Positions 17,693 to 34,585 of a DNA stretch of 64,000 bases are shown one piece after another. Position 1 is the first letter of the stretch; each line of letters begins with the position of its first letter. The notes below the pieces were generated by a model. That model was not told the origin of the DNA, searched no databases, and worked only from the letters and a program-made list of their open reading frames with translations. Position numbers and translations under genes: made by a program. The stretch is from Kiritimatiellia bacterium (lineage in GTDB: Bacteria > Verrucomicrobiota > Kiritimatiellia > RFP12 > UBA1067): contig JAFRDO010000014.1 of NCBI GenBank assembly GCA_017403825.1, positions 629 through 64,628 on the forward strand, read 5' to 3'.

Positions 17693-17732
17693 TTGACTCT
17701 TCTCCATATTGTAGTTGTAGTTGAGTGTTGTA

Positions 17733-19547
17733 TTAGGGTTTGACGTCCGTATAGCCGCACAGCGCGCCCAGCGCCCAGTCGAGGGCGAAGAAGGAAACGC
17801 CCTTCAGGGCGTCCGCCGCCTCGAGCTGCGCACGCACGGAGTCCCGGTCGGGACTCGCCTCGTCCGCGCAGGCGGCAATTCCCGGGACGAGGGCGCACGC
17901 TGGCACCGCCGCCTTGCACAGCGCAAGGTCGCGTTTGAAGGCGATTGGGGACTCGGTGTAGATCATGGGCGAGACGAAATCCACCCACTCCTCCTTCACC
18001 CACCGGGGCCAGTCCTGGCCACGCTTCGCCGCCGCTTCGGGGGTGGGAAACACCGCAGCGGAAAGCGCGCAGCCCGGACGCGCGCGGCGAAACATCCGCG
18101 AGAAAGTCCGGACGAAAAGCGAGATGTCGTCCATCTTCTCGGCGGTCGCCTCCTCAGCGGACGGCACGCGCACGTAGTCGAGCTGGACGCCGACGACATC
18201 CTGCGGGATTGAATCCAGGAGTTCCTGCGCGCGCCTGCCGCGTGCTTCTCCGCCGTGAGGAACGGTCCACCGGCCGTCCGAAGACTGTTCGAACGCATTG
18301 AGCCAGAGATGGACGCCGACGCCCGCTTTGCCAGCCAGCCAGAAAAATCGCCTGACGCCTGTCTCCCCGGAGCCCAGCGCTTCGCGGCGGACGAAGAGCG
18401 CATTCAGGCCATGCCCCTTCATCCATTCCGGCAGCGCCGGCATTCCACCCGGAAAGCCGGGAGGATTCTGCAGCCATGCTCCGCGCAACTCGAACTTGGC
18501 GAGTTCCGTGACAGAGATGGGCTTCATGGGGCCAGGAGGATCCTGACAGGCCATGTTGGGCGACACCTTCTGGACGATACTCCTGAGATGCCTTGCCGCC
18601 GCAGGCGATGGAAGCGGCGGGATGTGCGAGAACCACGCACCGGCGGGCGTGAGCGTCACGGCCGGCGAACCGGCCGAGCCGTCGGGAGAGAGGAACCGGG
18701 CCACCACCTTGGCGGAAGCCGAGCCGTCGAAGAACGGCACGATGGTGTTGTCGGTGCGGTGGGGATATGGCGGAACGGCCTCGTCGAGGGGCTTGATGGC
18801 GCACCACGGCTGTCCGCCGTGCCAGGCGCCGGGCCGCAGGCCGAACGCCTCCGAGAGGACGGGGTCGGCCGAATAGTAGACGATGGCGCGGCCGCCTTTG
18901 CGAATAAACCCGGCGAGGAGCTCGGCATCGTCGGCGGGAAGCGACGAGGCATCAGGGACGATGACGAGCCGCGGGGCGGATTTCACGGCGGCGGAAACGG
19001 AAGGATAGAGGTCGCAATCAAGCCGGCTGCGGGAGAGCGTGGAGGCTACGCGGCGCGCAAGAGTTTCCATCCACGAGCCTGTCGGGCCCGACAGAACGGC
19101 GATTTCAGAGACGGGGGCGAGCGAGATGGAATTGACGACGAGCCTGCCCGCACCGGGCGAAGGCGAGCGCCACACGCTCACGCGCACCTCGCCTATCTTC
19201 GGCTCCTCGCCAACGGTCGGCACGAAGTTCCCGAACGGAACGCGCAGGCGCGACGTGGCGAGCGCGGCAGCGTCGACTTGGGCGGCGGCAAGCCAGTCGC
19301 CGCCGATTTTCAAGTGGAACGTTGCGGCCCTGACGGAAGCGGCCCCCTCGAAAAGCTTGATGTCGAGCGCGATGGCGCCCGCCGGCACGCCGGGGCGGGA
19401 TGGCATCGGCTTCACGTCCACGAAGGCCCGGTCCTCCGCCGTTTTCGCGAAGTCCCACTCGAGCGACGACACGGCGGCCGGCGCCACCAGGGCAGCAAGG
19501 GCGCAGGCGAGCGACAGGAGCCTTTCCATGGCCCTTTGGAAAATCAT
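17733..19547 (-). CDS. Secreted glycoside-hydrolase-like protein (GHL10 / DUF187-type TIM barrel at the C-terminus)
   Basis: ORF 17733..19553. ATG 19547 forms an ATGA overlap with the upstream stop (alternative ATG 19529). Signal peptide MERLLSLACALAALVAPAAVSS. The C-terminal half carries GHL10-like motifs (GLNALFV..., VGVQLDYVRVP, GQDWPRWVKEEWVDFVSPMIY). Confidence 0.65.
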   Translation of the reverse strand: MIFQRAMERLLSLACALAALVAPAAVSSLEWDFAKTAEDRAFVDVKPMPSRPGVPAGAIALDIKLFEGAASVRAATFHLKIGGDWLAAAQVDAAALATSRLRVPFGNFVPTVGEEPKIGEVRVSVWRSPSPGAGRLVVNSISLAPVSEIAVLSGPTGSWMETLARRVASTLSRSRLDCDLYPSVSAAVKSAPRLVIVPDASSLPADDAELLAGFIRKGGRAIVYYSADPVLSEAFGLRPGAWHGGQPWCAIKPLDEAVPPYPHRTDNTIVPFFDGSASAKVVARFLSPDGSAGSPAVTLTPAGAWFSHIPPLPSPAAARHLRSIVQKVSPNMACQDPPGPMKPISVTELAKFELRGAWLQNPPGFPGGMPALPEWMKGHGLNALFVRREALGSGETGVRRFFWLAGKAGVGVHLWLNAFEQSSDGRWTVPHGGEARGRRAQELLDSIPQDVVGVQLDYVRVPSAEEATAEKMDDISLFVRTFSRMFRRARPGCALSAAVFPTPEAAAKRGQDWPRWVKEEWVDFVSPMIYTESPIAFKRDLALCKAAVPACALVPGIAACADEASPDRDSVRAQLEAADALKGVSFFALDWALGALCGYTDVKP

Positions 19548-19891
19548 CGCCACACGTACACCTCGCCGTCATTGGCAGGCGCCTTGACGGACTGGCCCGT
19601 TGGATTGTCGGCGGCGACAACAGTTGCGGATGCCGGAACGGGCGTCTGGGCAGAGGTCGGCGCGGGCGTTGGAGCCGCTGCCGCAGGTTTCAGCGCGGCA
19701 AAGGGATTTTCCAGCCTTACGGGAGCGTGTTCGTCGCCCATGTTGCCGTTGTTCTTGATGATGCGGGCGGTCTCGCGCCGGTTGTTCCGGATGCGCGAGC
19801 GGATCGCGTTTACCAGCGCGCTCAGAAGGAAGATGGCGGCAAGAATGCCGAACACCAGATGGAAAAGGTCGTTCTGAAGCAAGTCCTCCAT
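19544..19891 (-). CDS. Small bitopic membrane protein with Pro/Ala-rich tail (ExeB/GspB-like by architecture)
   Basis: ATG 19891 is preceded by GAAGGAGGG. One TM (LFHLVFGILAAIFLLSALV), then a basic stretch, then AAAAPTPAPTSAQTPVPASA. It lies immediately after the ExeA-like gene and is tightly coupled to both neighbours. Confidence 0.5.
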   Translation of the reverse strand: MEDLLQNDLFHLVFGILAAIFLLSALVNAIRSRIRNNRRETARIIKNNGNMGDEHAPVRLENPFAALKPAAAAPTPAPTSAQTPVPASATVVAADNPTGQSVKAPANDGEVYVWR

Positions 19892-19896
19892 ATCGG

Positions 19897-20724
19897 TCAA
19901 CCCTCCTTCGGCGAGATGTCCACGTCCTCGGCCGCCTGCCGCACGATCGCGGCGTCTATTTCGGAAGCCTTGGCCACATAGCCGAGCATCAGCGCGGTGT
20001 CGCAGATGTTAGTGATGCTTCTGGGCACGCCGCCGGAAAGGCGGTAAAGCTCGGACAAGGCCTCTTGGTTGAAGATCCACATGTCGCCGCCCGCCGCCAT
20101 GACCTTGTGCTGGACGAACTCGATGGTCTCGGTGTGCGTGAGGGGGGCGAGCGTCCAGGTAAGCTGCACCCTGGCGCGCAGGGACTGGTAGGAACGCACC
20201 ATGTCCAGAAGCTCCGGAATGCCGGCCATGATGACCGTGGCGAGCTGCTGTTCGCGTCCGTCGCTGGAGGCCAGGCGCAGGTTGCTCAGGTAATGGATGA
20301 GATAGAGCCCGTCATCGTCACCAAGATACTGCGCCTCGTCGATGAGAATCGCGTGGCGTTTCAGGGCGCCCGGCTTGCGGGAGAGCTCCTGAAGCGTCAT
20401 GAGGCCGTCCGCGATCGAGGCGACCGTCCCCTTCACGCCCAGGCCGGCGATGACATGGCGAAGCAGCGCTAGGTGCCCCTTGGGGATGGCGTCGATGCGG
20501 ATGTACGGAATGTCTGACTGGGTGATGCGCTCGGCCAGGTTGGACAGGAGGAAGGACTTGCCCATGCCGAACTGACCGGTGAGGATGCCGGCGACCCTTC
20601 CTTCCGAAACCAGGTAGAAGAGCCGTGCCACGCCCTCCTCGAACTGGCTCGAGAGGTAGAGCTGCTTAGGGTTGTATGAGTTGACGAACGGCGCTTCCCT
20701 GAGGTTCCAATATTTTTTGTACAT
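19897..20724 (-). CDS. ExeA/GspA-family AAA ATPase (AAA_22)
   Basis: 275 aa. N-terminal YWNLREAPF motif typical of ExeA/MshM, Walker A GQFGMGKS, Walker B AILIDEAQYL, and the C-terminal GG(V/I)PR motif (SGGVPRSITNICD). Confidence 0.8.
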   Translation of the reverse strand: MYKKYWNLREAPFVNSYNPKQLYLSSQFEEGVARLFYLVSEGRVAGILTGQFGMGKSFLLSNLAERITQSDIPYIRIDAIPKGHLALLRHVIAGLGVKGTVASIADGLMTLQELSRKPGALKRHAILIDEAQYLGDDDGLYLIHYLSNLRLASSDGREQQLATVIMAGIPELLDMVRSYQSLRARVQLTWTLAPLTHTETIEFVQHKVMAAGGDMWIFNQEALSELYRLSGGVPRSITNICDTALMLGYVAKASEIDAAIVRQAAEDVDISPKEG

Positions 20725-20725
20725 G

Positions 20726-21694
20726 TCAATCTTCTTCCTTCATTGCGGTGGCAAACGAATATTTCGCGCGTTTTTTCGTTTCTGTCTCGGCGGCGGCGAA
20801 CGAGAATTTAGCACGGTCGCTCCTTTCGGGCACGGGCGCGGGGCTGGGCTTGGGCTGCGGCACGGAATGCGAAATCTGGCCGAGTATGGACTGCGTCATG
20901 TCCATAATCACCGGATCTGCCCCATGGGAGAAGGACTCCGCGGCCTCTGGCGCCTCCTTTCGTTCGGCAGAAGCCAGGAATTCGCCAGACGACGTTGGGA
21001 CAGCCTCGGGCTCCACGTCCTTCACGAACCCTTCCCGCGGCACGAACTTCAGCGGCATCTCGTATGGCAGGCGGACGTTCGCCGTCAGTCCCATGTAGGC
21101 TAGCACCTTCATGAAGTAGTTGCCCAGCCTGTCGCGGTGGAACTGGATCGCGACCGAGGACCTGTTCAACACCTCCCCCCACACCGTCTTCGCGGCGGCG
21201 GAGACTGGTTCCGGCAAGGCCACGATGGTGGTAAGCCCGGATTCTTCGAGTGTCGAGATGAATTCCGCGACGCGCTCTGGAGCGGCAGAAACAGGATGGA
21301 CTTCGAGCCAGGGTCGGGCGTCCTGGATGAAGAGGACGGACGCCGAGACGCGGTGGGCCTCCGCGATGATCTCCTCAATCGATTCCCTGACGGGCAGTGC
21401 CTCACCCGGCTTGTAGGCATGGTAGAGGGCCGAGAGAGCGCCGATTTCAGTGGCCTTCTCCAGATCGTAGCCGACTTCGCGCGCCCGCAGCGTGACATAG
21501 TCTTTGGACTCGGTGAAGACGGCCAGGACCTGCTCTTCCAGCCGGTAGTAACTGTTCAGTATCGTGCCCGCAGCCACTTCGCGGCCTTCGTTCGAGGCGC
21601 CCATCAGAAACGTCACGTGGCCGACGTAGATGCCGGAGAACTTGTCATCCAGCGCAGGAATCCCGATGGGAACCTTCATGATCCTCTTTGTCAT
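20726..21694 (-). CDS. KaiC/RecA-superfamily-like protein with degenerate Walker A and a disordered repeat tail
   Basis: 322 aa. KaiC-like N-terminus GIPALDDKFSGIYVGHVTFLMG, but the P-loop reads GASNEGRE instead of GxxGxGK(T/S). The C-terminal ~100 aa are low complexity and end with two RAK(F/Y)SFA(A/T)A repeats. Confidence 0.6.
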   Translation of the reverse strand: MTKRIMKVPIGIPALDDKFSGIYVGHVTFLMGASNEGREVAAGTILNSYYRLEEQVLAVFTESKDYVTLRAREVGYDLEKATEIGALSALYHAYKPGEALPVRESIEEIIAEAHRVSASVLFIQDARPWLEVHPVSAAPERVAEFISTLEESGLTTIVALPEPVSAAAKTVWGEVLNRSSVAIQFHRDRLGNYFMKVLAYMGLTANVRLPYEMPLKFVPREGFVKDVEPEAVPTSSGEFLASAERKEAPEAAESFSHGADPVIMDMTQSILGQISHSVPQPKPSPAPVPERSDRAKFSFAAAETETKKRAKYSFATAMKEED

Positions 21695-22537
21695 TTAGGC
21701 TCTCCTCCCCGCCGCCACGGCAGCTTCAAGCTCGCGCAGACGTTTCGCCATCGCGGTGATGTCCATCAGCGTGCCCACCACCATGTCGTGGCGAGCGCCC
21801 GAGCTCTTCATCAGCTCGCAGAAAAGCACGTCCACGCGGTCGGGCTTGAGCGAGTCGACCAGGATGGGTCCTCCGGAACCGGAATCAACCGCGTTCTTGA
21901 CAACCCCGTTGAAGAGCCCGGCGTTCTGCCCCACGACTTCCGCAAGCGTGAAGCCGACCGTCTGCGGGCAGCCGACCAGCGCGTTGAAGTGGCCGTTGGC
22001 ACGCACGATCTTCCCCGTAGCGGCGTCGACCGCGAAGACGGCGGCGGCGGTCCCCTCGAGGACGGCGTTGAGCTCCCCGCCCACGGAGGCGATGGCGGCG
22101 GCGGCGGCGCTTGCCCGCTCGCAGACGGACTTCACCAGCGCCAGCAGCACCTTTCCGTCGAATGGCTTGCCGATCACTTCCCACGCACCGCATTCATAGA
22201 GCTCTGTGACCGTCTGAAGATCGATGGCCGAGGCGGTCTCCACCACCACTGGCACCATATTGACGATGCCGCTTTCGCGCAGAAACTTCAGCACTTCCCA
22301 TCCGTCCACCTCCTGCATGACGAGGTCAAGTATGATGGCGGAGTAGTTGTACGCGCCCATGCGCAGCATCTCGATGGCTCGGGTGCCGTCCGAAGCCTCG
22401 TGAACCTCGAAGTCGTTCTGGAATATGCTGCGGACGATTGACCGCACGACATTCGAATCGTCGATGATCAGGATCGGGGGTTTCGCGCTCCTGCGGGCTA
22501 CATCATGCGTGCTGGGGTGATGACTTGGGATTATCAT
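21695..22537 (-). CDS. Response regulator: receiver domain + PAS-like domain (no DNA-binding output)
   Basis: 280 aa. ILIIDDSNVVRSI...AIILDLVMQEVDG...GKPFD (intact receiver residues), then a PAS-like region (AAVFAVDAATGKIVRANGHFNALVG...). Confidence 0.8.
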   Translation of the reverse strand: MIIPSHHPSTHDVARRSAKPPILIIDDSNVVRSIVRSIFQNDFEVHEASDGTRAIEMLRMGAYNYSAIILDLVMQEVDGWEVLKFLRESGIVNMVPVVVETASAIDLQTVTELYECGAWEVIGKPFDGKVLLALVKSVCERASAAAAAIASVGGELNAVLEGTAAAVFAVDAATGKIVRANGHFNALVGCPQTVGFTLAEVVGQNAGLFNGVVKNAVDSGSGGPILVDSLKPDRVDVLFCELMKSSGARHDMVVGTLMDITAMAKRLRELEAAVAAGRRA

Positions 22538-22800
22538 AGGTATGTTCCTTTACCATGTCGTGGATAATCGGAGTTGCGTCAGAAATGGCTTAAGAGGTAG
22601 AGAAGCACCATGTGGTCAATGTAGGACCTCATGGCCAGGATGTCGAATTCCACCGAAACCGTCAGCCAGTCGGTGATGTCGTAGCTGTAGAGGCCGCCAA
22701 AGCCCCAGATGGCCTTCCAGTCGGTGTCTAGGTCGTATACGGACCTGAAGGAAGATGAGGGGATGGAAGAGGATTCTTCGGAGGAGTCGGAGGATTCCTT

Positions 22801-22836
22801 GGCTCTCTCAATCTCCCTGGCTCTCTCAATCTCCCG
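22801..22836 (-). repeat. 18-bp tandem duplication (2 copies, 1 mismatch) inside the barrel-coding part
   Basis: GGCTCTCTCAATCTCCCT followed by GGCTCTCTCAATCTCCCG. In frame it encodes the AREIER AREIER duplication. Confidence 0.9.
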
Positions 22837-23400
22837 GGCGACGTTCTTGTCGTCCAGCGAAAAGCCTCCGCGCCCGTCGCTCTTAGCGAAGCCGCCAACG
22901 ATGTCGGCCCGGAACCGCATCTTGTCCGAATCCGTCTCGTAGCGCAGCACGCCCAGCGCGCGCTTGTCCCAGTAGGGCGTCCAGTAGAAGTCGCTGGCTT
23001 CGCTCGTCGTGGTGGTGTTGAATCTCAGGCCGTACCAAACCGTCGGCATGGACTCGGAGGACCACATGGACTCGAGGTTTATGAAGTACATCGCGTTGTC
23101 GTCACTGTAGGTCCAGTACTGCGTACGACCGGACAGCTTCCAGTAGTCGGACGGCAGCCACTCAGCCATGAGGGCGAGGGAGTCGTACGTGACGTCCTTT
23201 ACGGCCGAGGCCACGTAGTCGTGGTCGAAGAGCGACATGACGGAGAAATTGTCCTCGGGGTTCCACCGGGCACCGAAGGAAAACACCACCTCGTCGTTCC
23301 TGCGCATCGGCGTGAAGATGCCGCTGTTGCGGTGATCCTGCAGGTTCGCGTAATCCACGTACGCGTAGCTGCCGGAGTAGTCGGGCTTGCGCGCCGACAG

Positions 23401-23408
23401 CCCCCCCC
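23401..23408. repeat. Homopolymer C8 (G8 on the coding strand) at the frameshift site
   Basis: Read directly: ...gccgacag cccccccc gagccg.... Confidence 0.95.
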
Positions 23409-26404
23409 GAGCCGAAGAGAAACACCCCGGAATCGAGGCGCCAGTTCATGCCCAAGCGCCAGTCGTCGGTGTCGGCCTTGAACTTGTATATCGACTCCCC
23501 GTAGGTCACGTCGGTCATCGTCCGCGCGTTCCAGTAGGGCCGGACGGTCTGCTTGATCTCGCCCTTGTGGTATTCGCCGTACAGACCGACCCGGTCGTTC
23601 CAGTTGGCCCCGGCCTTCCCGCCGTACCTGACGATCTCCACCTGGTCGTTGGCCTTGGTGTGGGAGATGTCGATCTGCCCGTAGGGATGGGCGGGATCGA
23701 ACCAAGGCTTTTCCTTCTCCTCGGACATCTGCCACTCGAGCTCCGACTCGCGCAAGTTGCCCGCGACCTGCTTCGCCCCCACGTCTTCGCCAGGATCGTT
23801 CCGGCGGATCGTCGTGTCGTTGCGGTCGTCGCGCTCCGCGTCGTGCGCGGACGTCCCGCCCGAGACCGTCTCCAGCAATGGGCGCATGCTGGCGGAGACG
23901 CGGTTGCGGAAGCGGTGGCGGATATTGTAGTCAAGCTTGGTGCACAGGTCTTCGGGATAGCCGTCCTTGCGCAGGCTGGCCACGATCTTGTTCGCCTCGT
24001 TCGGCTGGTTGAGGAGCATCGCCAGCTCGGCGCGCATCCGGCGGCCGAGGAAGTAGGGATGGAACTCATAGGCGTGCCGGACGACGTCCTCGCCCTCGTC
24101 CGCCCAGCCGGGCTCGTAGCGGCGCGCGATCATCGGGTCGTCGCCGGTCACGGTGAAGCCGGTGGTGCTCTGCACGAAGCCGAGGCTATAGGAGCAGGCG
24201 GCCTCGGAGATGATGCTGTCGCTGATCGAGCGCTTGGCGCTGATGTTGCACGCGCCAACCTGCCCCACCGAACCGAGGGGGTAGGCCACCATGGCCACGG
24301 CACAGTCGTTCGAGCCCATCTCCCTGCGGATCTTAGCGCGGCTATCGCGGAACTCGTGGCGTATGCGCCGGTCCCATTCGTTCATCGACTCGATCCGGTT
24401 GCGGTCGGCCTTCCACAGGCGGTTGTACAGAGGGTCTCGCATGTCGTCGCCCTCCTTGTCCACGGGCGCCTTCTTGTCGCCGGAGCGGAGCGAGGATCCG
24501 ACGATCCAGTTGCCGGTGTCGGCGTACTGGCGTATCTCATCCCACCCAGGCCTGCTTGGCTCGAAAGATTCCGGTTCATCGGATGGGGTGAACAGCGCGA
24601 AAGGAACGCCGAACTCCTCCGCGACACGGGTGCCCAGCACCATTTGCGAGCGGCGGGCGGTGTCGAACGTCACCGCGAAGGTCAACCGGGGGCCAAAGGA
24701 ATCCTCGTCATCCATGCCTTCTTCGTCCTCGTCGCCGGCATCGTCGTCTTCATCCTGCCCGGATCGCTTGCGCGCGCGGGCCTTTCCCGTCTCCTGAGTT
24801 TTCTTCTTGAGGTAATGCCGGCCCGTGATCATCCAGCCGATATGGTCGAAGAACTTCGCCGGGAGAGGCGCTTCCTCCTCGTCATCCTGCTCGTCGACGA
24901 GATGCCGCACTTTCCGGCGACCGTCCTTGGCGTTTTTTGCGGGGTTCCTCGCGGCGCCGATGATCCGGGGGATCTCGTCCGCCGATACCAGCTCCCAGCC
25001 GGCTCGCTGCAGCGAACGGATGTGCTCCGTCAGGCGTCTCACGCTCGTCTGCGGCATCCAGTCGCTCTCGGTGAGGTTGGAGTACTTGAGCGTCAACACG
25101 GAGCCCTTCGAACCCGCCTCTTCGAGCCGTTTCGCCTCCGCCAACGCCTTGGCGTATTCGCCCTGTGCGGAATAGAGGCGCGCGCGGTAGTAGTGTATCA
25201 TCGGGTCGTCGCGGTCGAAATACTTGAACCACTCGCGCAGGACGCGCTGCGCGGCATCGAAGTTCCGCTCCTTGACCTCCACCTCGAAGAGCATCGCAAG
25301 CGCCCGCACGTCCTGGTGGTTGTACTTGAGCAGGACGTCCTCGATCTGGCTGCGGCAGATGTTCAACCGATCGGACTGGTAGCAAAGCTCGGCCAGGAGC
25401 TCGCGCGCCTGCATGTTCAGGGGATCGGCCTCGACCGCCTCCTGCAGCCAGTCGATGATCGTGTCGGTCTTGTAGCGCTCGGGGTTGTCCCGGTTGATGG
25501 CCACACACCGGCCCGCGAGCCGGGTGAGGTACTCCGCGCGCATGAGGCGGTTGGTGGTCGCCTCGATAAGCGTCATGAGCGGGGTCACGTCCTCCTGGCC
25601 CGAGATCTCCGCGATATCGGCCCGGAGCCGCATGGCCGCCATGTTATCGGGATCCAGCTCGAGAATCTCCCGGCAAAGGCGGTCGGCTTTCTCCAGCTCG
25701 CCCACCCGCAGCTCCAGCGTGGCCTGCTCGAGTTTTATGAGGGGGTTGTCCGAGACGAGTTCCGCGATGTCGTGGTATATCTTGAGCGACTCCTCGTCCT
25801 GAAAGCGGTTCGCAAGCATCTGGGCGTAGGTGCGCTGGATGTCGACGCGGTCGGGGTTCTCCTTGACGAGCCCCTTCAAAACCGCTTCGGACTCCTCGAT
25901 CTCGCCCAGTCGCATCAGGTTCTGCGCGAACGAGTATTTGAGGTCGTAGTCCCGCGGATTGATGGCAAGGGCCTTGCGGAAGGCCTCGTCCGCCTTCACC
26001 CAGTCCTTCTCGAGGATCTCGTACTGCGCGACGAGCGCGTGGGGCTTGGCCTTCTCGGGCATCAGGTCGCGCATCCGGAACCACAGGTCGCGTGCGCGTT
26101 TCTGCTGGCCGGTCCGCACGTAGCACCAGCCGAGGCCCTCCCAGCCGGCCTCCAGCGCGGGGTCGCGCGAGATAGCCTCCTCCAGGTAGGGGATGGCATC
26201 GGCGAACTCCTCCTCCTGAACGCGCTCGAGTCCGTGATACAGGAGCGCCTGGGCGGGCGTTACCTCCGAGACGTCCGTCCGGCGGGACTCTTCGATCACG
26301 CGATTGAACTCGTCCTGGATGGTAGCGGCGCAAGCCGAACCGGCGGCCAGGAGCAGCGCCATCGCGATTGTCCGTCCAATTATCCTCATCGTGCCTCCTG
26401 CGGG

Positions 26405-27139: not shown

Positions 27140-27172
27140 TTTACCTTCCTTGTTTTTCATTGCATGTTTTTG

Positions 27173-27433
27173 TTATTGCGGGTCATCCTTCTGGTCGAGC
27201 CACCGCCCGCGAACGCACGCGGCTCCCCGGCGGAGAAAATCAAGCCGGAGCATCGCCGAGAGACGTGCGACAGGACGCACGAGCGACTTCGTCGCGTCGC
27301 GGGCAACTCCGTAGTCCATGTTCTCGGCGTTCTTCTCCATCGCCGGCGCGTTCATGAGCACCGCAAGCGCGTAGAACACGGCAAGGCCGGCCGCCGCCCG
27401 CCAAGTCGCATTTTTTCCTTCAGAGTCCTTCAT
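27173..27433 (-). CDS. Small membrane protein between the MBOAT and SGNH genes
   Basis: ATG 27433 is preceded by GAGGGAGG. There is one hydrophobic segment (AAAGLAVFYALAVLM). Its position matches the small partner proteins of MBOAT systems (positional inference only). Confidence 0.45.
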   Translation of the reverse strand: MKDSEGKNATWRAAAGLAVFYALAVLMNAPAMEKNAENMDYGVARDATKSLVRPVARLSAMLRLDFLRRGAACVRGRWLDQKDDPQ

Positions 27434-27446
27434 GTCCACGCCTCCC

Positions 27447-28931
27447 TCAGAACTGGAAATAGATGAACGGAGCCACGCCTTCGGGGGCGAGTCCCAGGAT
27501 GATGGTAAACACGACCGCCGCCAGGCCGCCCTGCACCCACGCGGGCCATCTGCGCACGCGGTCGGTGAGCCAGGCGAGCCGCGCTCCGTCGCAGAGCTGC
27601 AGGGCGAAGCCAGCCGCCAGCACCACCGCGCCGGCCGTCACCGGCAGCGTAGACTCCGCGCCTACGGCCCTGAACGCATTGAGGACCCCCTTGAAGGTCT
27701 CCATGCCGCCTGCGGAACCCGCCCTGAAGAGTATCCACAGGAAGGCGACCACGTGGAACACGAATATCCGCGCAAGCCACTTCGGCGGGCGGAAGGAAAC
27801 GATGCGGCCGAGCATGCGCTCCACCGCCAGCAGCGCGCCGTGCAGGATCCCCCACAGCGCGAACGCCCAGCCCGCCCCGTGCCAGAGTCCGCCCAGGAAC
27901 ATGGTGAGCATGAGATTCGCGTAGGTTCTCGCCTTCCCCCTGCGCGAGCCGCCCAGGGGGATGTAGAGGTAGTCGCGGAGCCACGACGAGAGCGAGATGT
28001 GCCAGCGGCGCCAGAACGTCTTGAAGCTGTCGGAGAAATAGGGCGCGTCGAAATTGATCGGGAACTCGAAGCCCAGCAGCAGTGCGCAGCCGATCGCGAT
28101 GTCGGAGTAGGCCGAGAAGTCGCAGTAGATCTGCAAGGTGTAGGCGTACACGCCCATGAGTGCGTCGATGGCGCCGAATTCCTCCGGCATGGCGAAGAGC
28201 GGGTCCGCGAGGTTCGTGGCGAGGTAGTCCGCGATGACCATCTTCTTGATGAGCCCCAAAAGGATGAGCACGCCCGCACGCGCAGTATCCAGCCTCGTCT
28301 CCGTCCCCGGCAGGTTTTCCATCGCCGGGATGAGGTGGCCCGCACGGACGATCGGCCCGGCAACGAGCTGCGGGAAGAAGGCAAGGTAGTTCGCGAAGTC
28401 GATCCAGCGCCTCGCGGGCTTGACCTCTCCGCGCGACACGTCGATCACGTAGCTCAGCGCCTGGAAGGTGTAGAAGGATATGCCCACAGGGAGGACGATC
28501 ATGTCCAGAAACGGCTGCGCCGACTCCAGGAAGGCGATCCACGCATCGCCTCGGCCAAGCCAGCCGGCCACCTTCACCCCCAGCGGGGCGACCGCCCCGT
28601 TGAAGAGGAATCCCGTGTACTTGAAGAACACGAGCACCCCGATGTTGAGCGAGACTGCCAGCACCACCGGCAGTCGGCCCGCCTGCGCCCCTCTCCCGGC
28701 CATCCACAGGGCGAAACCATGGTTGATGACGGAAGACGCGAGCAGCATCAGCGCAAACGGCCAGCTCCACCAGCCGTAGAACACAAGACTGGCGGCGAGC
28801 AGCACCAGCTTCCTCAGCGAGACGAACCCGTTTTCGCTGCCTGCATGCCGCTCCGCCAGTGCCGCCAGGCCCCAGTTGAGGCCGAAGACGACCGCGAAGA
28901 ACACGGCGAACGTCAAGGTCGGGAACAGCAT
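27447..28931 (-). CDS. MBOAT-family membrane O-acyltransferase (AlgI/DltB/PatA-like)
   Basis: The frame is that of ORF 27447..29012. ATG 28931 (MLFPTLTFAVFF...) overlaps the upstream stop by 1 nt (TGATG). MBOAT hallmarks: GISFYTFQALSYVIDV, FWRRWHISLSSWLRDYLYIPLGG, GGLWHGAGW. Confidence 0.85.
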   Translation of the reverse strand: MLFPTLTFAVFFAVVFGLNWGLAALAERHAGSENGFVSLRKLVLLAASLVFYGWWSWPFALMLLASSVINHGFALWMAGRGAQAGRLPVVLAVSLNIGVLVFFKYTGFLFNGAVAPLGVKVAGWLGRGDAWIAFLESAQPFLDMIVLPVGISFYTFQALSYVIDVSRGEVKPARRWIDFANYLAFFPQLVAGPIVRAGHLIPAMENLPGTETRLDTARAGVLILLGLIKKMVIADYLATNLADPLFAMPEEFGAIDALMGVYAYTLQIYCDFSAYSDIAIGCALLLGFEFPINFDAPYFSDSFKTFWRRWHISLSSWLRDYLYIPLGGSRRGKARTYANLMLTMFLGGLWHGAGWAFALWGILHGALLAVERMLGRIVSFRPPKWLARIFVFHVVAFLWILFRAGSAGGMETFKGVLNAFRAVGAESTLPVTAGAVVLAAGFALQLCDGARLAWLTDRVRRWPAWVQGGLAAVVFTIILGLAPEGVAPFIYFQF

Positions 28932-31900
28932 CAGTCTTCCCGCCCCCTTGGCATGACCACTATGATCGGCTTCGCTCCCGTGCGGCCCGTGCCGGCGGGA
29001 GCGGCCTTCCACTTCTCGAATTTCTCAGCCTGGGTCGCCCAGGTCGCCTTGCCCGTCTGCAGATAGACACTGCCGCGCTGGAGCTCGTGCAGCACCACCT
29101 TGGCGTCGGCCTGCACGGCCTCCGCGAGCGGCTTGTCGCTCTGGATCAGGATGACGTTCGCGAACATGGCCTCGAGCGCCTTCTCCATCTTCGCGCACCA
29201 CTCCTCCTCGGGGAGCCGCCTCACCCGCAGGCACAGGCCATCGAAGCCAGCCTTCTTTATGTAGGCGATGACGTCCGCAGGTTCGGGGTCGTTGTAGTAG
29301 CCGAGGTCCACGACCGGCATGAGCCGCAGACGGTGGTAGCGCGTGAAGACGCGCAGACTGTCTAGCGCGCGAGCGTCTGGAGAAGAGAGGGACCGATCCA
29401 CCGCCTGCTGGCCGACGACCGGCGCAATCACGCCCACGTCGCCCGCCCGCCCGCGCAGGGCCTCGAGAACGTCGTGCGTCGGCGCGGGGTCGGAGGTGCC
29501 GTCCTCCCTGACGGTCGGCAGCAGGTCCATGACGACGATTGTCGGGTTCATCGGGCCGGACGACAGCACCTTGATGCGCGTCTGAGCCATGCCCGTCTCG
29601 GATGCGGAGGCCGCCACCCCCCACCAGCCATAGCCGAGCGCGCGCGGAATATCGAGGGGCGTGGAGAACGCGGGATTGCCGTTGACATAGCCGATCGCAC
29701 CGTCGCCGCGGATCTCCAGCCGGAGCGTGAGGTCGTCTTTCGGACGGACCCACAGGACGCTGTCCAGCACCCGTGGCTCGCCGTTCTGCCATGCCTGAAT
29801 GCGCAGGAATCCGTCGCTGTCGAACCCGAAGCGCACCATGCCCTGCGTCGAGCGCCGCGCATAGAGCCAGAACGCGCCGAGCGACTCGCCGATCCTCGTC
29901 TCCAGGAACCCGTCGCGGAAGAGGTCACTGCGCTTGAGCCTCAGGTTGGTCTCGGATGGGTCGGGCAGGCCCGGCAGCAGGTATTCGCCGCCGATCAGCG
30001 CCCCGTTGTTGCCGAAAACCTCCCAGCTGTCGGAGAGACCGGACTCCGAGAAATTCTCGGTAACGGGCTGTTCGAGCGGCATCAGCGACATGTAGTTGCG
30101 CCGCACCAGGCCGTTCTTGGAATCCCTCGCCACGCGCCGCAGGAAGTCGAACGCCGCGCTCGACTCCGGGAACGTCAAGATCCCGGAGTCCTCGATTTTG
30201 CGGCGGAACCACATCAGGTTCTGGCTGTTGGGCGCGACCATGCCGATGATGTGCAGCAGGTTGTCGTAGCGCTCGGACGCCTCGTTGAGGTAGTTGTGCA
30301 GTGCCACCCTGATGTCGATGTTGCCGGGCTGGCGTCCGACCCAGTCCTCGAGAATCGCGCGCGCGTCCGCGCGCAACCCCTTGTGGTCGAGCCAACGCGC
30401 CTGCGCGAGGGCGATCTCGCGGTTGAGGGGGAAGGCCTTCGCGTACCTGTCCAGCATCTCGCGCGCCTCGTCCTCGGCCTTGCCGGTCGTCATCAGGTAG
30501 TCGGCGAAGGCCGTCACCACGCCGATTCGCCCGGGGTCGAGTTCGAGGGCCTTCCGGTAGGCCTCCGCCGCCTCGTCGCCACGCGTCTCGCGGACGTTCA
30601 GCCTCGCCTTGTATTCCCATGCGTCCGCGCTCGTCGGCATCGCCTCCGTCCAGCGCTTGGCGACGGCGTCAGCCTCAAGGAAACGGCGTTCGGACAGAAG
30701 CCGCTCGGCCCGGACGGCGAAGTCCGGATCGCCGGGGTTCGAATCCTGCGGCTTCGCGTCGATCGTCGCGAGCTGGTAGTAGTTGACGGCGCCGTCCTTA
30801 TCGTTCGGCACCACCGGCAGGAGCCCGTGCATGCGCTTCCTGAGGGCGGGCGTGACCTCCGAGCCGTCCGCAGCCACCACGATCACGCCCGGCAGCGTGT
30901 CAAGAAAGCCCACCGCCAGGCTCCCCGCCACGAACGACGCCGGGAACCTGACCGCTACCGGCATGTTGGTACACTCCGTATCCTTGCGGAACGACGCGAT
31001 CCAGCTGCGCATCAACGGCAGGCTCGTCTCCTCCAGTTCGCTCGCGTCTACGTAAAGCCCCGCGAACCCGCCGTCCTTGAACGCCTCCGCCGACGTCTCC
31101 CGCGGGATGTTGCCGAACGGGTTCTTCCCGGAAAGCTTCAGCCGCGGCCATACGCCGCAGAACGCCTTGGCCGCCTCGATCTTGATGACGTCGAGATCCT
31201 CCACGAGCTGGAAGCCGGCCATGCCGTCGCTCGCCGAAAACCACGGCGGCGCGATTCCGTCGTACCTGAAGGCCTGCCGTTCAAGCTCCGCGAAGACGTC
31301 CGTCTTGTCGCGTATCGACTCTGCATCCCAAAACGCGAAACGCGGCAGCGGCGCCCTGAGACGCGCGGATATGATCTCCACTTCCGCCTCGCCGGGATGG
31401 CCGCTCCATACGCCCGCGCCGACGAATCCTGGCCTGGGCCGAGGGTTCCCAAGGCTCACGCCCCCGCCGAAGAGCACCCGCCCGTCCAGCATCGAGAAGA
31501 GCGCGCCGCTGCGCGTGATGAGAACGAGCGAGTGCTCGCGGCCCGTACCGATGGGGGATTCCAGGAATTCAACGGCCAGCCTTTCGCCGGCCGTGCGTCC
31601 CGGCTGGTTGCGCGTCAGGATGACCGAGCTGTCCGTTCCGAACGTGAGCATCACCGCGTCGTCTTCGGCCACGTAGTTCAGGAGCACGGTGAAGCCGCCA
31701 CCATCCATGCGGAACTTGATTTCAAACGAGCCTTCCGCAAAGGCGTTGGATCCCATCACCAGCGCCTTCGAGCCGGTGGTGGAGCCTTTGTCTGAGACGA
31801 TCGGGTCGTCCGGGGCCTTTGCCCGCAGGTAGACGGAGGGGCTGTTGGCGTCTGGCATGCACTCGCCCCAGATCGCGCGCCACCTTTCCTTTCCCACGTC

Positions 31901-32944
31901 ACCCGCCTTCGGCGGGTCGTTCCAGCCGCCGGGTATCTCGCGCGGCCACACGCCGTCAAGGATGCGCACCAGCTCGTCGGCGCTCCACGCGGGATCCACC
32001 TTGAGCCGCGCGAGGCGGCGCGGGTCGGAGAGAGCGTCGTTGTAGCCGAAGCCGTCGATGATGAACCCCATTTCGTAGAAGTCCTCCACCGCCTTGAGGT
32101 TGGCTTCCCGCAACGGCTTGTTGTGCGCCTCGAACTGTCCGTAGTTCCCCATGGGGAAGAAGAACGCCCGCGCCGCGCATCCGAGCGTGTTCGTGAAAAA
32201 CGAAACCGCTGCAGCATGGTCGGCGCGGATGCGCCTGTCGAACTCCTCCGGGGTTTCAAATCGCGAAAGATCCGGCAGCCATGCGGGCGCGGAAAAGAAC
32301 ATCGCCGTTCGCCCGTCCGCGCCCGCAGTGACCTCTCCCGTGCCGTGGTCGGACTCCGCCGCCAGGTCCCACGTGGGGTTTGATTTCATGCGCTCCAGGT
32401 ACGGCGCGAGGATGACCCCTTCCGACTCCTTGCGCACGTCGTCCGTCACCACCCCCATGACGGCATGCCAGCGCCTCTTCTCCAGCAGGCCGCCGGCGGT
32501 GAAATACGAGCTTCGCCGCGAGTTCTCGAACGTGATCAGCAGCGACTTGGCGGGAAGGAGGCGCTTCTCCTTGTAGAACCTCGCCACGTCGTCGAGCGTG
32601 ATCGGGGTGTACCCCGCCGCCATCAGCGCGTCTAGCTGCGAATTGAACTCCTTCGTCGAGACGAAGTCCCCGCCGGCTTCCGGATTTGTCGTGACGCCGC
32701 CGTAGGCGATGGCCACGAACGAATCGCTCGCGCGCTTTGCCATGTCCAGCGCCGCCCGCTCCGTGCGCTCACGCTGCTTCCAGTAGATGCTGTTGATCAC
32801 GCCCCATGTCGCCACCCCCAGACACACGAGGCCAAGCAACACGAGCCAGGCGGTGCGGTTCTGGTCCTTGCGCATCGCCTGCGGACGCGCCCACCCGCTG
32901 CCCGGCATATTGGCGGAACTGGTTTTTTCCGGATTCTCGCTCAT
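28931..32944 (-). CDS. Giant (about 1337 aa) membrane-anchored periplasmic protein: PgaB-like CE4 domain with variant motif, beta-sandwich/LamG-like regions, TPR block, hydrolase-like C-terminal region
   Basis: The frame is that of ORF 28931..33052. ATG 32944 (MSENPEK...) forms an ATGA overlap with the GT2 stop. TM segment AWLVLLGLVCLGVATWGVI. PgaB-like N-domain (STKEFNSQLDALMAAGYTPITLDD...SLLITFENSRRS). TPRs (AEAYRKALELDPGR...). The C-terminal fold call is inference only. Confidence 0.7.
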   Translation of the reverse strand: MSENPEKTSSANMPGSGWARPQAMRKDQNRTAWLVLLGLVCLGVATWGVINSIYWKQRERTERAALDMAKRASDSFVAIAYGGVTTNPEAGGDFVSTKEFNSQLDALMAAGYTPITLDDVARFYKEKRLLPAKSLLITFENSRRSSYFTAGGLLEKRRWHAVMGVVTDDVRKESEGVILAPYLERMKSNPTWDLAAESDHGTGEVTAGADGRTAMFFSAPAWLPDLSRFETPEEFDRRIRADHAAAVSFFTNTLGCAARAFFFPMGNYGQFEAHNKPLREANLKAVEDFYEMGFIIDGFGYNDALSDPRRLARLKVDPAWSADELVRILDGVWPREIPGGWNDPPKAGDVGKERWRAIWGECMPDANSPSVYLRAKAPDDPIVSDKGSTTGSKALVMGSNAFAEGSFEIKFRMDGGGFTVLLNYVAEDDAVMLTFGTDSSVILTRNQPGRTAGERLAVEFLESPIGTGREHSLVLITRSGALFSMLDGRVLFGGGVSLGNPRPRPGFVGAGVWSGHPGEAEVEIISARLRAPLPRFAFWDAESIRDKTDVFAELERQAFRYDGIAPPWFSASDGMAGFQLVEDLDVIKIEAAKAFCGVWPRLKLSGKNPFGNIPRETSAEAFKDGGFAGLYVDASELEETSLPLMRSWIASFRKDTECTNMPVAVRFPASFVAGSLAVGFLDTLPGVIVVAADGSEVTPALRKRMHGLLPVVPNDKDGAVNYYQLATIDAKPQDSNPGDPDFAVRAERLLSERRFLEADAVAKRWTEAMPTSADAWEYKARLNVRETRGDEAAEAYRKALELDPGRIGVVTAFADYLMTTGKAEDEAREMLDRYAKAFPLNREIALAQARWLDHKGLRADARAILEDWVGRQPGNIDIRVALHNYLNEASERYDNLLHIIGMVAPNSQNLMWFRRKIEDSGILTFPESSAAFDFLRRVARDSKNGLVRRNYMSLMPLEQPVTENFSESGLSDSWEVFGNNGALIGGEYLLPGLPDPSETNLRLKRSDLFRDGFLETRIGESLGAFWLYARRSTQGMVRFGFDSDGFLRIQAWQNGEPRVLDSVLWVRPKDDLTLRLEIRGDGAIGYVNGNPAFSTPLDIPRALGYGWWGVAASASETGMAQTRIKVLSSGPMNPTIVVMDLLPTVREDGTSDPAPTHDVLEALRGRAGDVGVIAPVVGQQAVDRSLSSPDARALDSLRVFTRYHRLRLMPVVDLGYYNDPEPADVIAYIKKAGFDGLCLRVRRLPEEEWCAKMEKALEAMFANVILIQSDKPLAEAVQADAKVVLHELQRGSVYLQTGKATWATQAEKFEKWKAAPAGTGRTGAKPIIVVMPRGRED

Positions 32945-34488
32945 CCTCTCGTACCCCATTTCTTGCCGTCCAAAGTCAGGAAGCCCCAGTAGGTCTGCCA
33001 GCCGAAGAAGAAGATGTAGGAAAGCGTGAACAGGATTCCGGCATACCACCACCTACGGCCGCTCGTGATCCAGAAGTGGAGACACCACACCATCGTGATC
33101 GTGAGCACGCCGATCACATACGACGGATGCAGTGCCCCTTCCTGCAGGGGCGCAATGATAAGCGCCTGCACCATCACGACGGGCTCGGCGATCGGCATCC
33201 ACATCATGGCGTACCACGAAAGCGCGGGAACGGGGTGCTTGCGCCACATGAACTTGCCCGTCTTCCAGATTTCGCGCAGATAGGACCTCACCCACCGCGC
33301 CTGCTGGCGTGCGTACTGCTTCCACCCCTCGGGGCAGATCGTCGTCGCGAGCGCCTCGTCGTCGTAAATGATCTTGTAGTCCTTCAGGATGAGGTTCGTG
33401 AGCGAACGGTCGTCGGCGTAGTTCCCGTGCTCGCCCCAGACGGTCGCGTTGATCCAGTCGTCCATCACGGCGAGGACGCACGTCCGCCTGTACGCCGAAA
33501 AGCATCCGGGCAGGCAGCTCACGGTGCCGAATACGCTTTCGGCCGCCTTCATGATCTTGTACGAGAAGTAGTACCTCACGTCCTGCATCCGCGTGAGCAT
33601 GTTGACGTTCGCGTTCTCGATGTCGCAGTGGCCGGAGATTCCGCCCACCGTCGGGTCCACGAAGCCTTGCATCAGCTTGTGGAGCGAACCAGGGAAGACG
33701 AAGGTGTCCGAATCCACGCACACCATGAACTCGCCGCGCGCGAGGAACGTAGCCACCCCCCAGCCGTGGCAGAGGCCTCGGTTCTTCTCGAAATTCACCA
33801 GCACGAGCCCCGGATGGTTCGTCTGCGCCTCCTGGATGTGGACGAGCGAATCGTCCGAGGAGCCGTCGTTGACGCACACGACCTCAAGCTTGTCCAAGGG
33901 ATAGCCCGAGGAGAAGATGCGCTCCAGGGTCTTGCGGATCGCCTGGCCCTCGTTGAAACACGGCACCAGCACCGTCAGCGTCGGCTCGAAGTCGGCTTCA
34001 GCCGGCGCCTTGTAGAAGGCGGCGAAAATGAAGCGCGTGATCACGAAGGCGCCGGCGATGATGGAGTAGATCGACACGAGCGGCTGGTAGAAGTAGTTCT
34101 CGATGCTGTTCAGCTGCAGCGTCACCGCCCACGCCAGCAGACCCACCGCGCCGATCGCCACGATGATGCCGAATATGAAATGCGGGGGATGGTAGATCGC
34201 CTTCAGACGCGCCTTCACCTCTTCCGGCGAAGGCGGCTCCATCGACGGGGCGACCGGGCGCTCCAGCGTGCTCTGCACCATCGCCTGGCGGCAGTAGGGA
34301 CAGATCGTTGGCGGGGCCGTCCCCACGGTCTGGACGTCAATCAAACAGTGCGGACACCGACTGGAACGCACCTCCACCGAATCTCGGCGGCGGCTCCCGG
34401 AGACGGCGGGGCTGGGACTGGAACGCGTAAAAAAACTGCGCGTTCCCTCTCCCCCTGCCGTTGCCATCGATGTCATGCCGGTTGTCAT
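32941..34488 (-). CDS. Processive family-2 glycosyltransferase of the hyaluronan-synthase / NodC / chitin-synthase type, with an N-terminal C4 zinc ribbon
   Basis: 515 aa. CPHC...CPYC at residues 45-66. GT2 core: VLVPCFNEG, VCVNDGSSDDS, CVDSDT. HAS/NodC-type signatures: ADDRSLTN and QQARWVRSYLRE. Multiple C-terminal TM helices. Confidence 0.85.
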   Translation of the reverse strand: MTTGMTSMATAGGEGTRSFFTRSSPSPAVSGSRRRDSVEVRSSRCPHCLIDVQTVGTAPPTICPYCRQAMVQSTLERPVAPSMEPPSPEEVKARLKAIYHPPHFIFGIIVAIGAVGLLAWAVTLQLNSIENYFYQPLVSIYSIIAGAFVITRFIFAAFYKAPAEADFEPTLTVLVPCFNEGQAIRKTLERIFSSGYPLDKLEVVCVNDGSSDDSLVHIQEAQTNHPGLVLVNFEKNRGLCHGWGVATFLARGEFMVCVDSDTFVFPGSLHKLMQGFVDPTVGGISGHCDIENANVNMLTRMQDVRYYFSYKIMKAAESVFGTVSCLPGCFSAYRRTCVLAVMDDWINATVWGEHGNYADDRSLTNLILKDYKIIYDDEALATTICPEGWKQYARQQARWVRSYLREIWKTGKFMWRKHPVPALSWYAMMWMPIAEPVVMVQALIIAPLQEGALHPSYVIGVLTITMVWCLHFWITSGRRWWYAGILFTLSYIFFFGWQTYWGFLTLDGKKWGTRG

Positions 34489-34536
34489 CTAATCCACTTG
34501 TAACTTACCCTTCTTTGTGAATTCATTGAGGATATA

Positions 34537-34545
34537 TTATATCAA
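34537..34545 (-). promoter_or_regulatory. Extended -10 element TGATATAAT (minus strand) for the exopolysaccharide operon
   Basis: The reverse complement of 34537..34545 is TGATATAAT, ~49 nt upstream of ATG 34488, in the only AT-rich spacer upstream of the operon. Confidence 0.4.
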
Positions 34546-34585
34546 ATTTGATGCAAAAGCGTAATAGTGGAAATTCCCTGGAATA

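Follow-up and report, generated by a model that had tools for sequence, protein, structure and literature searches.

To our knowledge, few synthase-dependent exopolysaccharide (EPS) systems are understood, namely those for alginate, cellulose, poly-N-acetylglucosamine (PNAG) and Pel, nearly all from Proteobacteria and Firmicutes, and such systems always carry a periplasmic glycoside hydrolase. Here we analyzed a gene cluster in a 64-kb stretch of DNA (64,000 nt, in the following called the window) on contig JAFRDO010000014.1 of an uncultured Kiritimatiellia bacterium from the rumen. We consider it likely that this cluster belongs to an uncharacterised family of synthase-dependent EPS secretion systems that extends across the Planctomycetes-Verrucomicrobia-Chlamydiae (PVC) superphylum.

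Gene arrangement and comparison with described systems

The genes are numbered g1 to g12 in the order of their transcription on the minus strand, and all coordinates are positions in the window.

g1: 32941–34488, minus strand, 515 aa, glycosyltransferase of family 2 (GT2) of the hyaluronan synthase (HAS)/NodC/chitin synthase type
g2: 28931–32944, minus strand, 1337 aa, giant periplasmic protein anchored in the inner membrane
g3: 27447–28931, minus strand, 494 aa, membrane-bound O-acyltransferase (MBOAT), DltB/AlgI/PatA-like
g4: 27173–27439, minus strand, 86–88 aa, small protein with a single hydrophobic segment
g5: 26405–27160, minus strand, 251 aa, secreted SGNH/DUF459 protein, PatB/AlgJ-like O-acetyltransferase or esterase
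g6: 22579–26389, minus strand, outer-membrane exporter split by a frameshift
g7: 21695–22537, minus strand, 280 aa, response-regulator receiver (REC) with a weak PAS-like C-terminal part
g8: 20726–21694, minus strand, 322 aa, KaiC/RecA-like protein with a degenerate Walker A motif
g9: 19897–20724, minus strand, 275 aa, AAA_22 ATPase, ExeA/MshM/TIGR03015-like
g10: 19544–19891, minus strand, ~115 aa, small bitopic protein
g11: 17733–19553, minus strand, 604–606 aa, secreted protein with a C-terminal GHL10/DUF4015 domain
g12: 17192–17707, minus strand, 171 aa, PTS_EIIA_2-like protein
Leader: 34489–34682, minus strand, 194-nt AT-rich spacer between an SDR gene and g1
G8 run: 23401–23408, minus strand (C8 on the plus strand), +1 insertion splitting g6

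According to the listing of open reading frames (ORFs) and their translation, g1 to g11 are eleven frames of the same direction, from the g1 start at 34488 to the g11 end at 17733. Re-measured, the junctions g1/g2 and g2/g3 are overlaps of 4 nt (ATGA) and 1 nt (TGATG), followed by gaps of 7, 12, 15 and 41 nt for g3/g4, g4/g5, g5/g6 and g6/g7, of 0 nt for g7/g8, and of 1 and 5 nt for g8/g9 and g9/g10. The genes g10 and g11 overlap again, in an ATGA coupling if the ATG at 19547 is the start of g11. A preliminary description of the locus had listed eleven co-directional genes, overlapping or at most 41 nt apart and with ATGA and TGATG couplings, and its coordinates and junctions were correct; the eleven frames stand, but a twelfth co-directional gene, the EIIA-like g12, had been overlooked. 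Since a convergent gene ends at 17156, just past g12, this gene is probably the last one and the unit probably ends at 17192.

One of the closest described systems is pgaABCD of E. coli, with which the locus shares a homologous synthase (g1 and PgaC, HHalign 99.7%), PgaB-like domains and an outer-membrane protein with N-terminal tetratricopeptide repeats (TPR) and a C-terminal barrel, for which PgaA is among the best fold matches. However, g1 carries motifs of hyaluronan and chitin synthases (DDRSLTN, WGTRG) and reaches 119.5 bits with the NCBIfam model for PgaC/IcaA (TIGR03937), whose cutoff is 422.3. The operon is without PgaD. Its PgaB-like domains form part of the two giants g2 and g6 and are devoid of the Asp-His-His triad, and a search for a GH153 domain was negative. 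MBOAT/SGNH, GHL10 and ATPase genes are additional. The barrel, predicted to have 18 strands, was rejected as a sequence relative of PgaA because no sequence similarity was detected, so that the likeness is one of fold only.

The class I hyaluronan synthases (Chlorella virus, streptococcal), NodC and chitin synthases align with g1 over the motifs DxD, C-x-G-x-x-x-AY, (G/A)DDRxLTN, QQxRW and WGTRG. Nevertheless, the match spans only the part from about residues 213–235 to the C-terminus, with ~90 bits, and no score is at the equivalog level. Moreover, g1 ends at WGTRG while the Chlorella virus HAS (CvHAS) runs ~110 aa further, it has an additional N-terminal Cys4 ribbon, and it is part of a diderm export operon without a gene for UDP-glucose dehydrogenase (hasB).

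The Bcs and Wss systems resemble the locus in combining a synthase with a large periplasmic partner, an exporter of TPR and barrel, for which BcsC was the top fold match, and a periplasmic hydrolase, and Wss also in its MBOAT-based O-acetylation by WssH/I. In contrast to Bcs, g1 is without PilZ and g2 without detectable homology to BcsB, the hydrolase is of the GHL10 instead of the GH8 type, and KaiC-like and AAA_22 ATPases are found instead of BcsQ. With the XrtA/PEP-CTERM EPS loci there is an alignment of g9 to TIGR03015 and of the TPR parts of g2 and g6 to PrsT (TIGR02917), but all these scores are below cutoff and the operon contains no exosortase, PEP-CTERM proteins, Wzx/Wzy or tyrosine kinase. 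Finally, AlgI/J/F/X and PatA/PatB correspond to the pair of MBOAT and periplasmic SGNH proteins with intact catalytic motifs, although the SGNH protein here belongs to DUF459 and a conserved small transmembrane (TM) protein of ~88 aa is encoded between the two genes.

Judged by its gene content, the locus thus fits no single one of the pga, bcs, alg, nod and has systems, and the combination of synthase, periplasmic scaffold, modifying enzymes, TPR-porin and hydrolase indicates that its logic is of the synthase-dependent secretion kind.

Predicted functions of the gene products

The synthase g1 matches the Pfam families Chitin_synth_2 (86.6 bits) and Glycos_transf_2 (83.4 bits), and its best named NCBIfam model is NodC (TIGR04242; 146.5 bits against a cutoff of 550). 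Its best relatives of solved structure are CvHAS, the top match in the PDB, and the Xenopus hyaluronan synthase. The family profile of g1 is in register with CvHAS (7sp7) at DSDT, CLPGCFSAY, DDRSLTN, QQARW and WGTRG; all motifs of the HAS/chitin synthase clade (DxD, (G/E)DDR, QxxRW and WGTR) are present in it. With these motifs and two N-terminal and several C-terminal hydrophobic helices, g1 is predicted to be the inner-membrane GT2 of a synthase-dependent EPS system. A zinc-ribbon-like motif (CxxC...CPYC) precedes the first TM helix and is kept in those relatives that were called from their full N-terminus. The family is 60–96% identical across metagenome-assembled genomes (MAGs) of the PVC superphylum. 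Motifs, profile scores and the conserved ribbon all agree with the initial assignment of g1 to the HAS/NodC/chitin-synthase-type GT2s with an N-terminal ribbon. We infer that g1 would act as a processive synthase of a polymer containing N-acetylhexosamine (HexNAc).

One clade of Kiritimatiellae (P0008/L004 and ~30 other clusters) has a longer GT2 of 704–781 aa. It is otherwise 70–76% identical to g1 and carries an insertion of ~200 aa, rich in hydrophobic helices, inside the C-terminal membrane region.

The giant protein g2 consists of a TM segment, a PgaB-like domain of carbohydrate esterase family 4 (CE4) at residues ~75–340, a beta-sandwich (345–540), an alpha/beta domain (540–710), a TPR block (740–950), a second beta-sandwich (960–1140) and a second alpha/beta domain (1155–1331). 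Its family profile matched the PgaB deacetylase (5e-29), and Polysacc_deac_1 was found in 17 of 22 homologues. An AlphaFold2 model of residues 345–1337 (predicted local distance difference test score (pLDDT) 84, predicted template modelling score (pTM) 0.71) showed the same order of sandwich, alpha/beta, TPR, sandwich and alpha/beta. In a Foldseek search with this model the sandwiches matched CBM66/GH16/lectin-type folds, and the TPR block was matched as well. The second half repeats the first, as HHalign paired the two alpha/beta domains with 97% and the two sandwiches with 98% probability.

The preliminary description had called part of this protein hydrolase-like. This is not borne out by the model with its CBM66/GH16-like sandwiches, TPR and duplicated alpha/beta domains, nor by profile comparison, in which a relationship of the alpha/beta domains to GHL10, to the C-terminal domain of PgaB (GH153) or to BcsB was not detectable (HHalign probability ≤7%). 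BcsB was also absent from the top 50 Foldseek matches of the model, and no profile similarity to E. coli BcsB was seen. The duplicated plan of sandwich plus alpha/beta domain may resemble the twofold CBD-FD arrangement of BcsB. The earlier statement that a BcsB-like partner is missing is doubtful, since g2 may fill that role.

A second PgaB-like domain lies in the middle of g6; it resembles the CE4-like domain of g2 (HHalign 99.6%) and PgaB (96.5%). In PgaB we take the metal triad to be D115, H184 and H189 and the catalytic residues to be D114 and H55. At the positions of D114, D115, H184, H189 and H55, the g2 protein of the window has E, N, E, T and G; its motif reads TFEN, and the g2 family consensus at the deacetylase motifs is TFEQ/AAES. 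Most of the g6 family keeps YHGL, TFDDG and GSHL, whereas the window protein and L009, L012, L089 and L104 have Y(S/T)xL (YSNL in the window), TFDT and GSSL. Neither g2 nor g6 of the window clade thus contains the CE4 Asp-His-His triad with the catalytic Asp and His. The polymer had been proposed to be partly de-N-acetylated, but with the catalytic and metal residues replaced in both PgaB-like domains, de-N-acetylation is not supported in the window organism. Glycan binding is the more likely function of the two domains.

The exporter g6 comprises a signal peptide, TPR (~40–430), which were also matched in the Pfam scan, the PgaB-like domain (~430–800) and a beta-barrel of 18 strands (~900–1269). 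We modeled residues 425–1246 of P0121, an 88% identical homologue, by AlphaFold2, which yielded the 18-strand barrel with a pLDDT of 80–96. The top Foldseek matches of this barrel were BcsC (9b8a/6tzk) and PgaA (4y25, TM 0.71). A TPR scaffold, in g2 and g6, and an outer-membrane porin of the BcsC/PgaA fold are thus both encoded, although g6 is frameshifted in the window.

Three genes between g2 and g6 form an O-acylation set, as had been recognized before, with family matches and intact catalytic motifs. The MBOAT protein g3 (Pfam MBOAT, 115.5 bits) has NCBIfam DltB as its best named model, below cutoff with 169 bits, and both His motifs, RWH and GLWHG, are present in its translation. For g5, DUF459 was matched with 148.8 bits and PatB, the best named model, with 62 bits, again below cutoff; the SGNH blocks GDS, GTND and DxxH (DGIH) and a signal peptide can be read in the translation. 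Between them, g4 has one TM segment and no Pfam or NCBIfam family match, and homologues occupy the equal position in 22 loci.

The secreted protein g11 contains an N-terminal DUF4350/GH42M-like domain and a C-terminal glycoside-hydrolase-like domain of the TIM-barrel type (GHL10/DUF4015). The window protein by itself gives a weak match (GHL10, E = 0.0036), while 22 of 23 family members match GHL10 (best 2.6e-20) and DUF4015, and the family profile matched Cwp19 (5oq2) at 2.4e-9. With its signal peptide, g11 is a candidate for the periplasmic hydrolase.

The remaining genes may have a role in control. In g7, Response_reg was matched with 72.4 bits and PAS_8 below cutoff (E = 0.002); this gene is limited to the window clade, L004 and L017. 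The KaiC-like protein g8 (Pfam KaiC, 27.3 bits) reads GASNEGRE at the site of the Walker A motif. The wider family has GRxGSGK[ST] and 18 relatives of the rumen clade have G[AT]SGEGRE, so the dead P-loop noted earlier recurs among them and, judged by this pattern, is real, lineage-specific and maintained. The g9 protein matches AAA_22 (56 bits) and aligns end to end with TIGR03015 (124.7 bits against a cutoff of 324.5), and all homologues retain intact motifs for both Walker A and Walker B. It had been termed ExeA-like, which applies to the AAA_22-type ATPase domain but not to the full ExeA/GspA architecture, as the TM and peptidoglycan-binding parts are lacking. Its neighbor g10 has an N-terminal TM segment, a basic stretch, a Pro/Ala-rich tail and a VRLENPF motif. 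No Pfam match, and thus none to GspB, was obtained for g10 at E ≤ 0.01; only its bitopic, Pro-rich character fits the earlier label ExeB-like. At least 12 of 22 loci have a comparable small TM protein, with a basic stretch and an xDPF/NPY motif, encoded between AAA and GHL10. Lastly, g12 (PTS_EIIA_2, 31.8 bits) lies 25 nt past g11 and also follows g11 in L093, with 78% identity.

Profile matches thus account for the REC, KaiC-like, AAA_22 and GHL10 genes that had been listed, for GHL10 mainly via its family. Profile scans of all 12 products for PilZ and GGDEF/EAL gave no match, in agreement with the earlier observation, and hence no receptor for cyclic di-GMP (c-di-GMP) was found among them. 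An anti-phage defence role of the KaiC/AAA module was considered and rejected, as PADLOC gave no match among g7–g10 and g12.

Distribution of the family and the frameshift in the exporter gene

We identified more than 1800 homologues of the GT2 in metagenomes, and a scan of species-representative genomes yielded 80 loci. These belong to Kiritimatiellia, Lentisphaerae and Verrucomicrobiota (including Opitutia and Spartobacteria), with 2 in Planctomycetota and 1 in Hydrogenedentota; the closest loci are those of Kiritimatiellae from sheep and cattle gut. When we looked for cultured carriers, all 80 loci and every named cluster member turned out to be from a MAG or a metagenome protein. The gene set recurs in ~70 species genomes of the PVC superphylum, all uncultured.

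Synteny was evaluated for 72 loci with a GT2 at least 50% identical to g1, counting for each gene only loci with enough flanking sequence:

g2 after the GT2: 51 of 54 loci
MBOAT downstream of the GT2: 36 of 43 loci
SGNH downstream of the GT2: 30 of 41 loci
Exporter downstream of the GT2: 27 of 37 loci
KaiC-like upstream of the GT2: 27 of 43 loci
AAA upstream of the GT2: 25 of 40 loci
GHL10 upstream of the GT2: 16 of 28 loci

This conserved adjacency speaks for clustering beyond chance. Usually the genes form two divergent units, one with GHL10, small TM protein, AAA and KaiC-like genes, and the other with GT2, giant, MBOAT, small protein, SGNH and exporter genes. In L004 and L017, the ATPase/GHL10 block is co-directional and upstream of the GT2, and in the rumen clade of the window it is co-directional and downstream, with REC and EIIA added. 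Because the same genes occur in three arrangements, we regard them as a functional unit rather than chance neighbors.

The source annotations name the proteins merely "hyaluronan synthase", "glycosyltransferase", "TPR protein" or "polysaccharide deacetylase family". In the literature that we searched, the coverage of which is incomplete, we found no described counterpart of the locus. It is not described in a survey of bacterial chitin synthases (PMC5122149) or in the description of Kiritimatiella, which reports an extracellular polymer (PMC5148204). As to the parts list presented as unreported in the preliminary description, no described counterpart came to light, but it is not peculiar to this genome, being that of a PVC-wide family. 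In the comparison of neighborhoods suggested there, GT2, MBOAT and AAA genes co-occur at the loci, and no characterised collinear EPS operon was found in the same literature.

A more distant sister group (L079–L087) has a GT2 35–41% identical to g1, followed by an anchored CE4-like protein of 635–654 aa that matches only the anchored N-terminus of g2; at least one GHL10 gene lies near the loci L082–L084 and L087.

In the window, g6 is not a single ORF. The ORF from 23162 to 26389 (1075 aa) ends in an Arg-rich, out-of-frame tail, and the barrel resumes in the ORF 22579–23358, which ends with ...LLSHF. The cause is the G8 run: four genomes of related species have one base fewer at this site and read through, and relatives have interrupted tracts of 7 nt and an intact frame there. 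In the contigs L089 and L104, from rumen metagenomes, g6 is intact as one protein of 1245–1246 aa, and 26 protein clusters of 84–88% identity are likewise intact with 1232–1264 aa. The earlier view of g6 as a TPR-CE4-barrel exporter in one polypeptide therefore has to be divided: the fusion of the domains is seen intact in relatives, but the window has no single ORF and the CE4 residues are lost. Since the identical G8 is present in two further assemblies of the same population, L001 and L002, the extra G has three possible explanations: the allele is real and either OFF or a pseudogene, it is a phase variant due to strand slippage, or the homopolymer was misread reproducibly. The copy of the system in the window may thus be switched off or damaged.

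A second tract, G9 (C9 on the plus strand) at 34586–34594, lies in the leader ~100 nt before g1, and L011 and L012 have C14–C16 upstream of the GT2. The two tracts are the sole G/C homopolymers of at least 8 nt in the 64 kb. A statistical significance of their position in or at the operon was rejected, the events being too few and an independent, identically distributed model, as an estimate, expecting more such runs in 64 kb. The tracts may reflect slipped-strand switching, which is not statistically compelling.

The leader separates g1 from the co-directional SDR gene (34683–35453) upstream. Besides G9 it contains a hairpin with a U-run (~34607–34645) and a TGATATAAT element ~45 nt before the ATG of g1, features that make this spacer a plausible leader or promoter region at the start of the operon. 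A riboswitch or other known RNA in the leader or operon was rejected: an Rfam scan of both gave no family in the leader, no c-di-GMP riboswitch and a single match at chance level, and the leader folded no better than shuffled sequences (z = −1.3). In scans for sigma-70 promoters and terminators, the counts, including those of terminator-like sites within the operon, were not above those in shuffled sequences, and a scan of this type is ill-suited to PVC promoters.

We compared all genes with those of L009 and L104 and obtained ratios of nonsynonymous to synonymous substitution rates (dN/dS) of 0.15–0.54, indicating purifying selection. These values bear on the alternative that the system is of the proposed kind but non-functional here, the operon decaying through the g6 frameshift, the dead P-loop of g8 and the lost CE4-like sites. 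Such decay would fit the G8 frameshift in two assemblies of the window population, the degeneration of the g8 Walker A motif and the g6 catalytic residues relative to the wider family, and the relatively high dN/dS of 0.3–0.5. However, these g8 and g6 variants are common to the rumen-clade relatives checked (18 for g8; L009, L012, L089 and L104 for g6), and g6 is intact in L089 and L104, so they are older than the strain and represent stable, maintained states rather than recent decay. Furthermore, all other genes are intact with dN/dS below 1, and a single base separates g6 from an intact frame, which could reflect phase variation, with g6 switched OFF, or a misread homopolymer in the sequencing. 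Ongoing decay is therefore unlikely in our view.

The surroundings of the operon vary among close relatives. Four relatives with operon genes 88–96% identical (dS ~0.1–0.2; L009, L014, L021 and L048) have no detectable genes in common with the window flanks (<17192 and >34682), and in several relatives another gene ends right before the GT2. This suggests that the operon resides in variable contexts, via rearrangement or transfer. No retrieved relative shares the flanks of the window, and the dN/dS values therefore refer to the operon genes alone.

In the window itself, three tandem genes of ~950–1055 aa (8061–17156, plus strand) converge with the end of the operon. At least two of them encode an amino-acid permease fused to HisKA, HATPase_c and REC domains, that is, hybrid histidine kinases, and such a triplicate transporter-sensor fusion is unusual. 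On the other side, a Bac_transf phosphoglycosyl transferase and a membrane protein resembling Wzy_C/O-antigen ligase (43546–46682, minus strand) suggest that another glycan pathway, dependent on a lipid carrier, is encoded close by. Two ORFs of 1371 and 1567 aa (48385–57264, minus strand), followed by a PPIase gene, may be giant surface proteins; they contain only Calx-beta/PPC and thioredoxin-like fragments. A GH20 beta-N-acetylhexosaminidase (59698–61284, plus strand; 356 bits) belongs to a class that could degrade a HexNAc polymer.

Working model and its alternatives

In our working model, g1 would polymerise a HexNAc-containing beta-glycan from UDP-sugars and thread the chain across the inner membrane, as its motifs suggest. 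In the periplasm, g2 would take over the chain with its two sandwiches, which resemble carbohydrate-binding modules (CBM), its degenerate PgaB-like domain and its TPR block. This protein would not deacetylate the chain but bind it and serve as a scaffold, with a function like that of BcsB, AlgK or PgaB. The proteins g3, g4 and g5 would O-acylate the polymer, comparable to PatA/PatB, AlgI/J/X and WssH/I. The TPR and PgaB-like modules of g6 would span the periplasm and the polymer would leave through its BcsC/PgaA-like 18-strand barrel, with g11 as the periplasmic glycoside hydrolase of the system. The REC protein g7, the pseudo-ATPase g8, the active-looking ATPase g9, the putative bitopic adaptor g10 and the EIIA-like g12 could constitute a control or assembly module in the cytoplasm and inner membrane that stands in for c-di-GMP receptors.

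Several points weigh against this assignment. All carrier genomes are MAGs and the family is known from genes alone. The synthase g1 is far under the curated cutoffs for both NodC and PgaC, and its top named model, NodC, is an oligosaccharide synthase, so that processivity is deduced solely from the export apparatus. The roles given to the g2 alpha/beta domains, g4, g8, g9, g10 and g12 are guesses. The sugars and their linkage, those of a HexNAc beta-glycan, are presumed. In addition, the g6 exporter is out of frame in the window, and dN/dS values of 0.3–0.5 are rather relaxed.

Alternatively, the genes could serve a cell-envelope polymer or the remodelling of peptidoglycan, with MBOAT and SGNH proteins O-acetylating a wall glycan like PatA/PatB, the GHL10 protein cutting peptidoglycan like Cwp19 and the ExeA-like ATPase aiding the insertion of the large outer-membrane protein through the sacculus. 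PatB and DltB as the best named models of g5 and g3 are in line with this, as are the sole solved relative of the g11 family, the peptidoglycan hydrolase Cwp19, and the established part of GspA/ExeA ATPases in peptidoglycan-linked secretin assembly. Yet all these matches are far under the family cutoffs, and g9 with its 275 aa is without the TM and peptidoglycan-binding parts of ExeA. Synteny moreover ties the genes to a HAS-type synthase and a BcsC/PgaA-like porin, and we know of no role of chitin/HAS-type GT2s in peptidoglycan synthesis. We therefore regard an envelope function as quite improbable.

A pathway for short, modified chito-oligosaccharide signals with the GT2 as NodC, the CE4-like domains as NodB and the acyltransferase as an analogue of NodA would agree with NodC as the top NCBIfam model of g1 and with the adjoining CE4-like and acyltransferase genes, but is hardly credible given CE4-like domains without catalytic residues, a 1269-aa TPR-barrel exporter and a 1337-aa periplasmic CBM/TPR scaffold as features of polymer secretion, a C-terminal membrane region of g1 that aligns with hyaluronan synthase through WGTRG, and the fact that MBOAT/SGNH pairs O-acetylate periplasmic polymers and do not N-acylate cytoplasmic oligomers.

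Within the reading as a synthase-dependent EPS system, one may go further and see a PVC-specific class that secretes an O-acetylated chitin- or hyaluronan-like polymer. It would be set apart by an exporter with fused PgaA and PgaB features, a pseudo-deacetylase/CBM giant in a BcsB-like role, control by KaiC-like and AAA_22 proteins with REC and EIIA instead of c-di-GMP, and possibly switching at G tracts. We put this fuller picture forward tentatively.

Rumen, gut, sediment and wastewater all harbor Kiritimatiellia, Lentisphaerae and Verrucomicrobiota in abundance, and the formation of matrix and aggregates by these bacteria could be due to the system. The locus points to a module for the control of secretion that works without c-di-GMP. 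It also offers a natural experiment in the conversion of enzymes to scaffolds, as the PgaB-like domains and the KaiC-like ATPase look active in some clades and dead in others. If the proposed function is true, this family would add a way in which diderm bacteria make chitin- or hyaluronan-like polymers, materials of biotechnological value.

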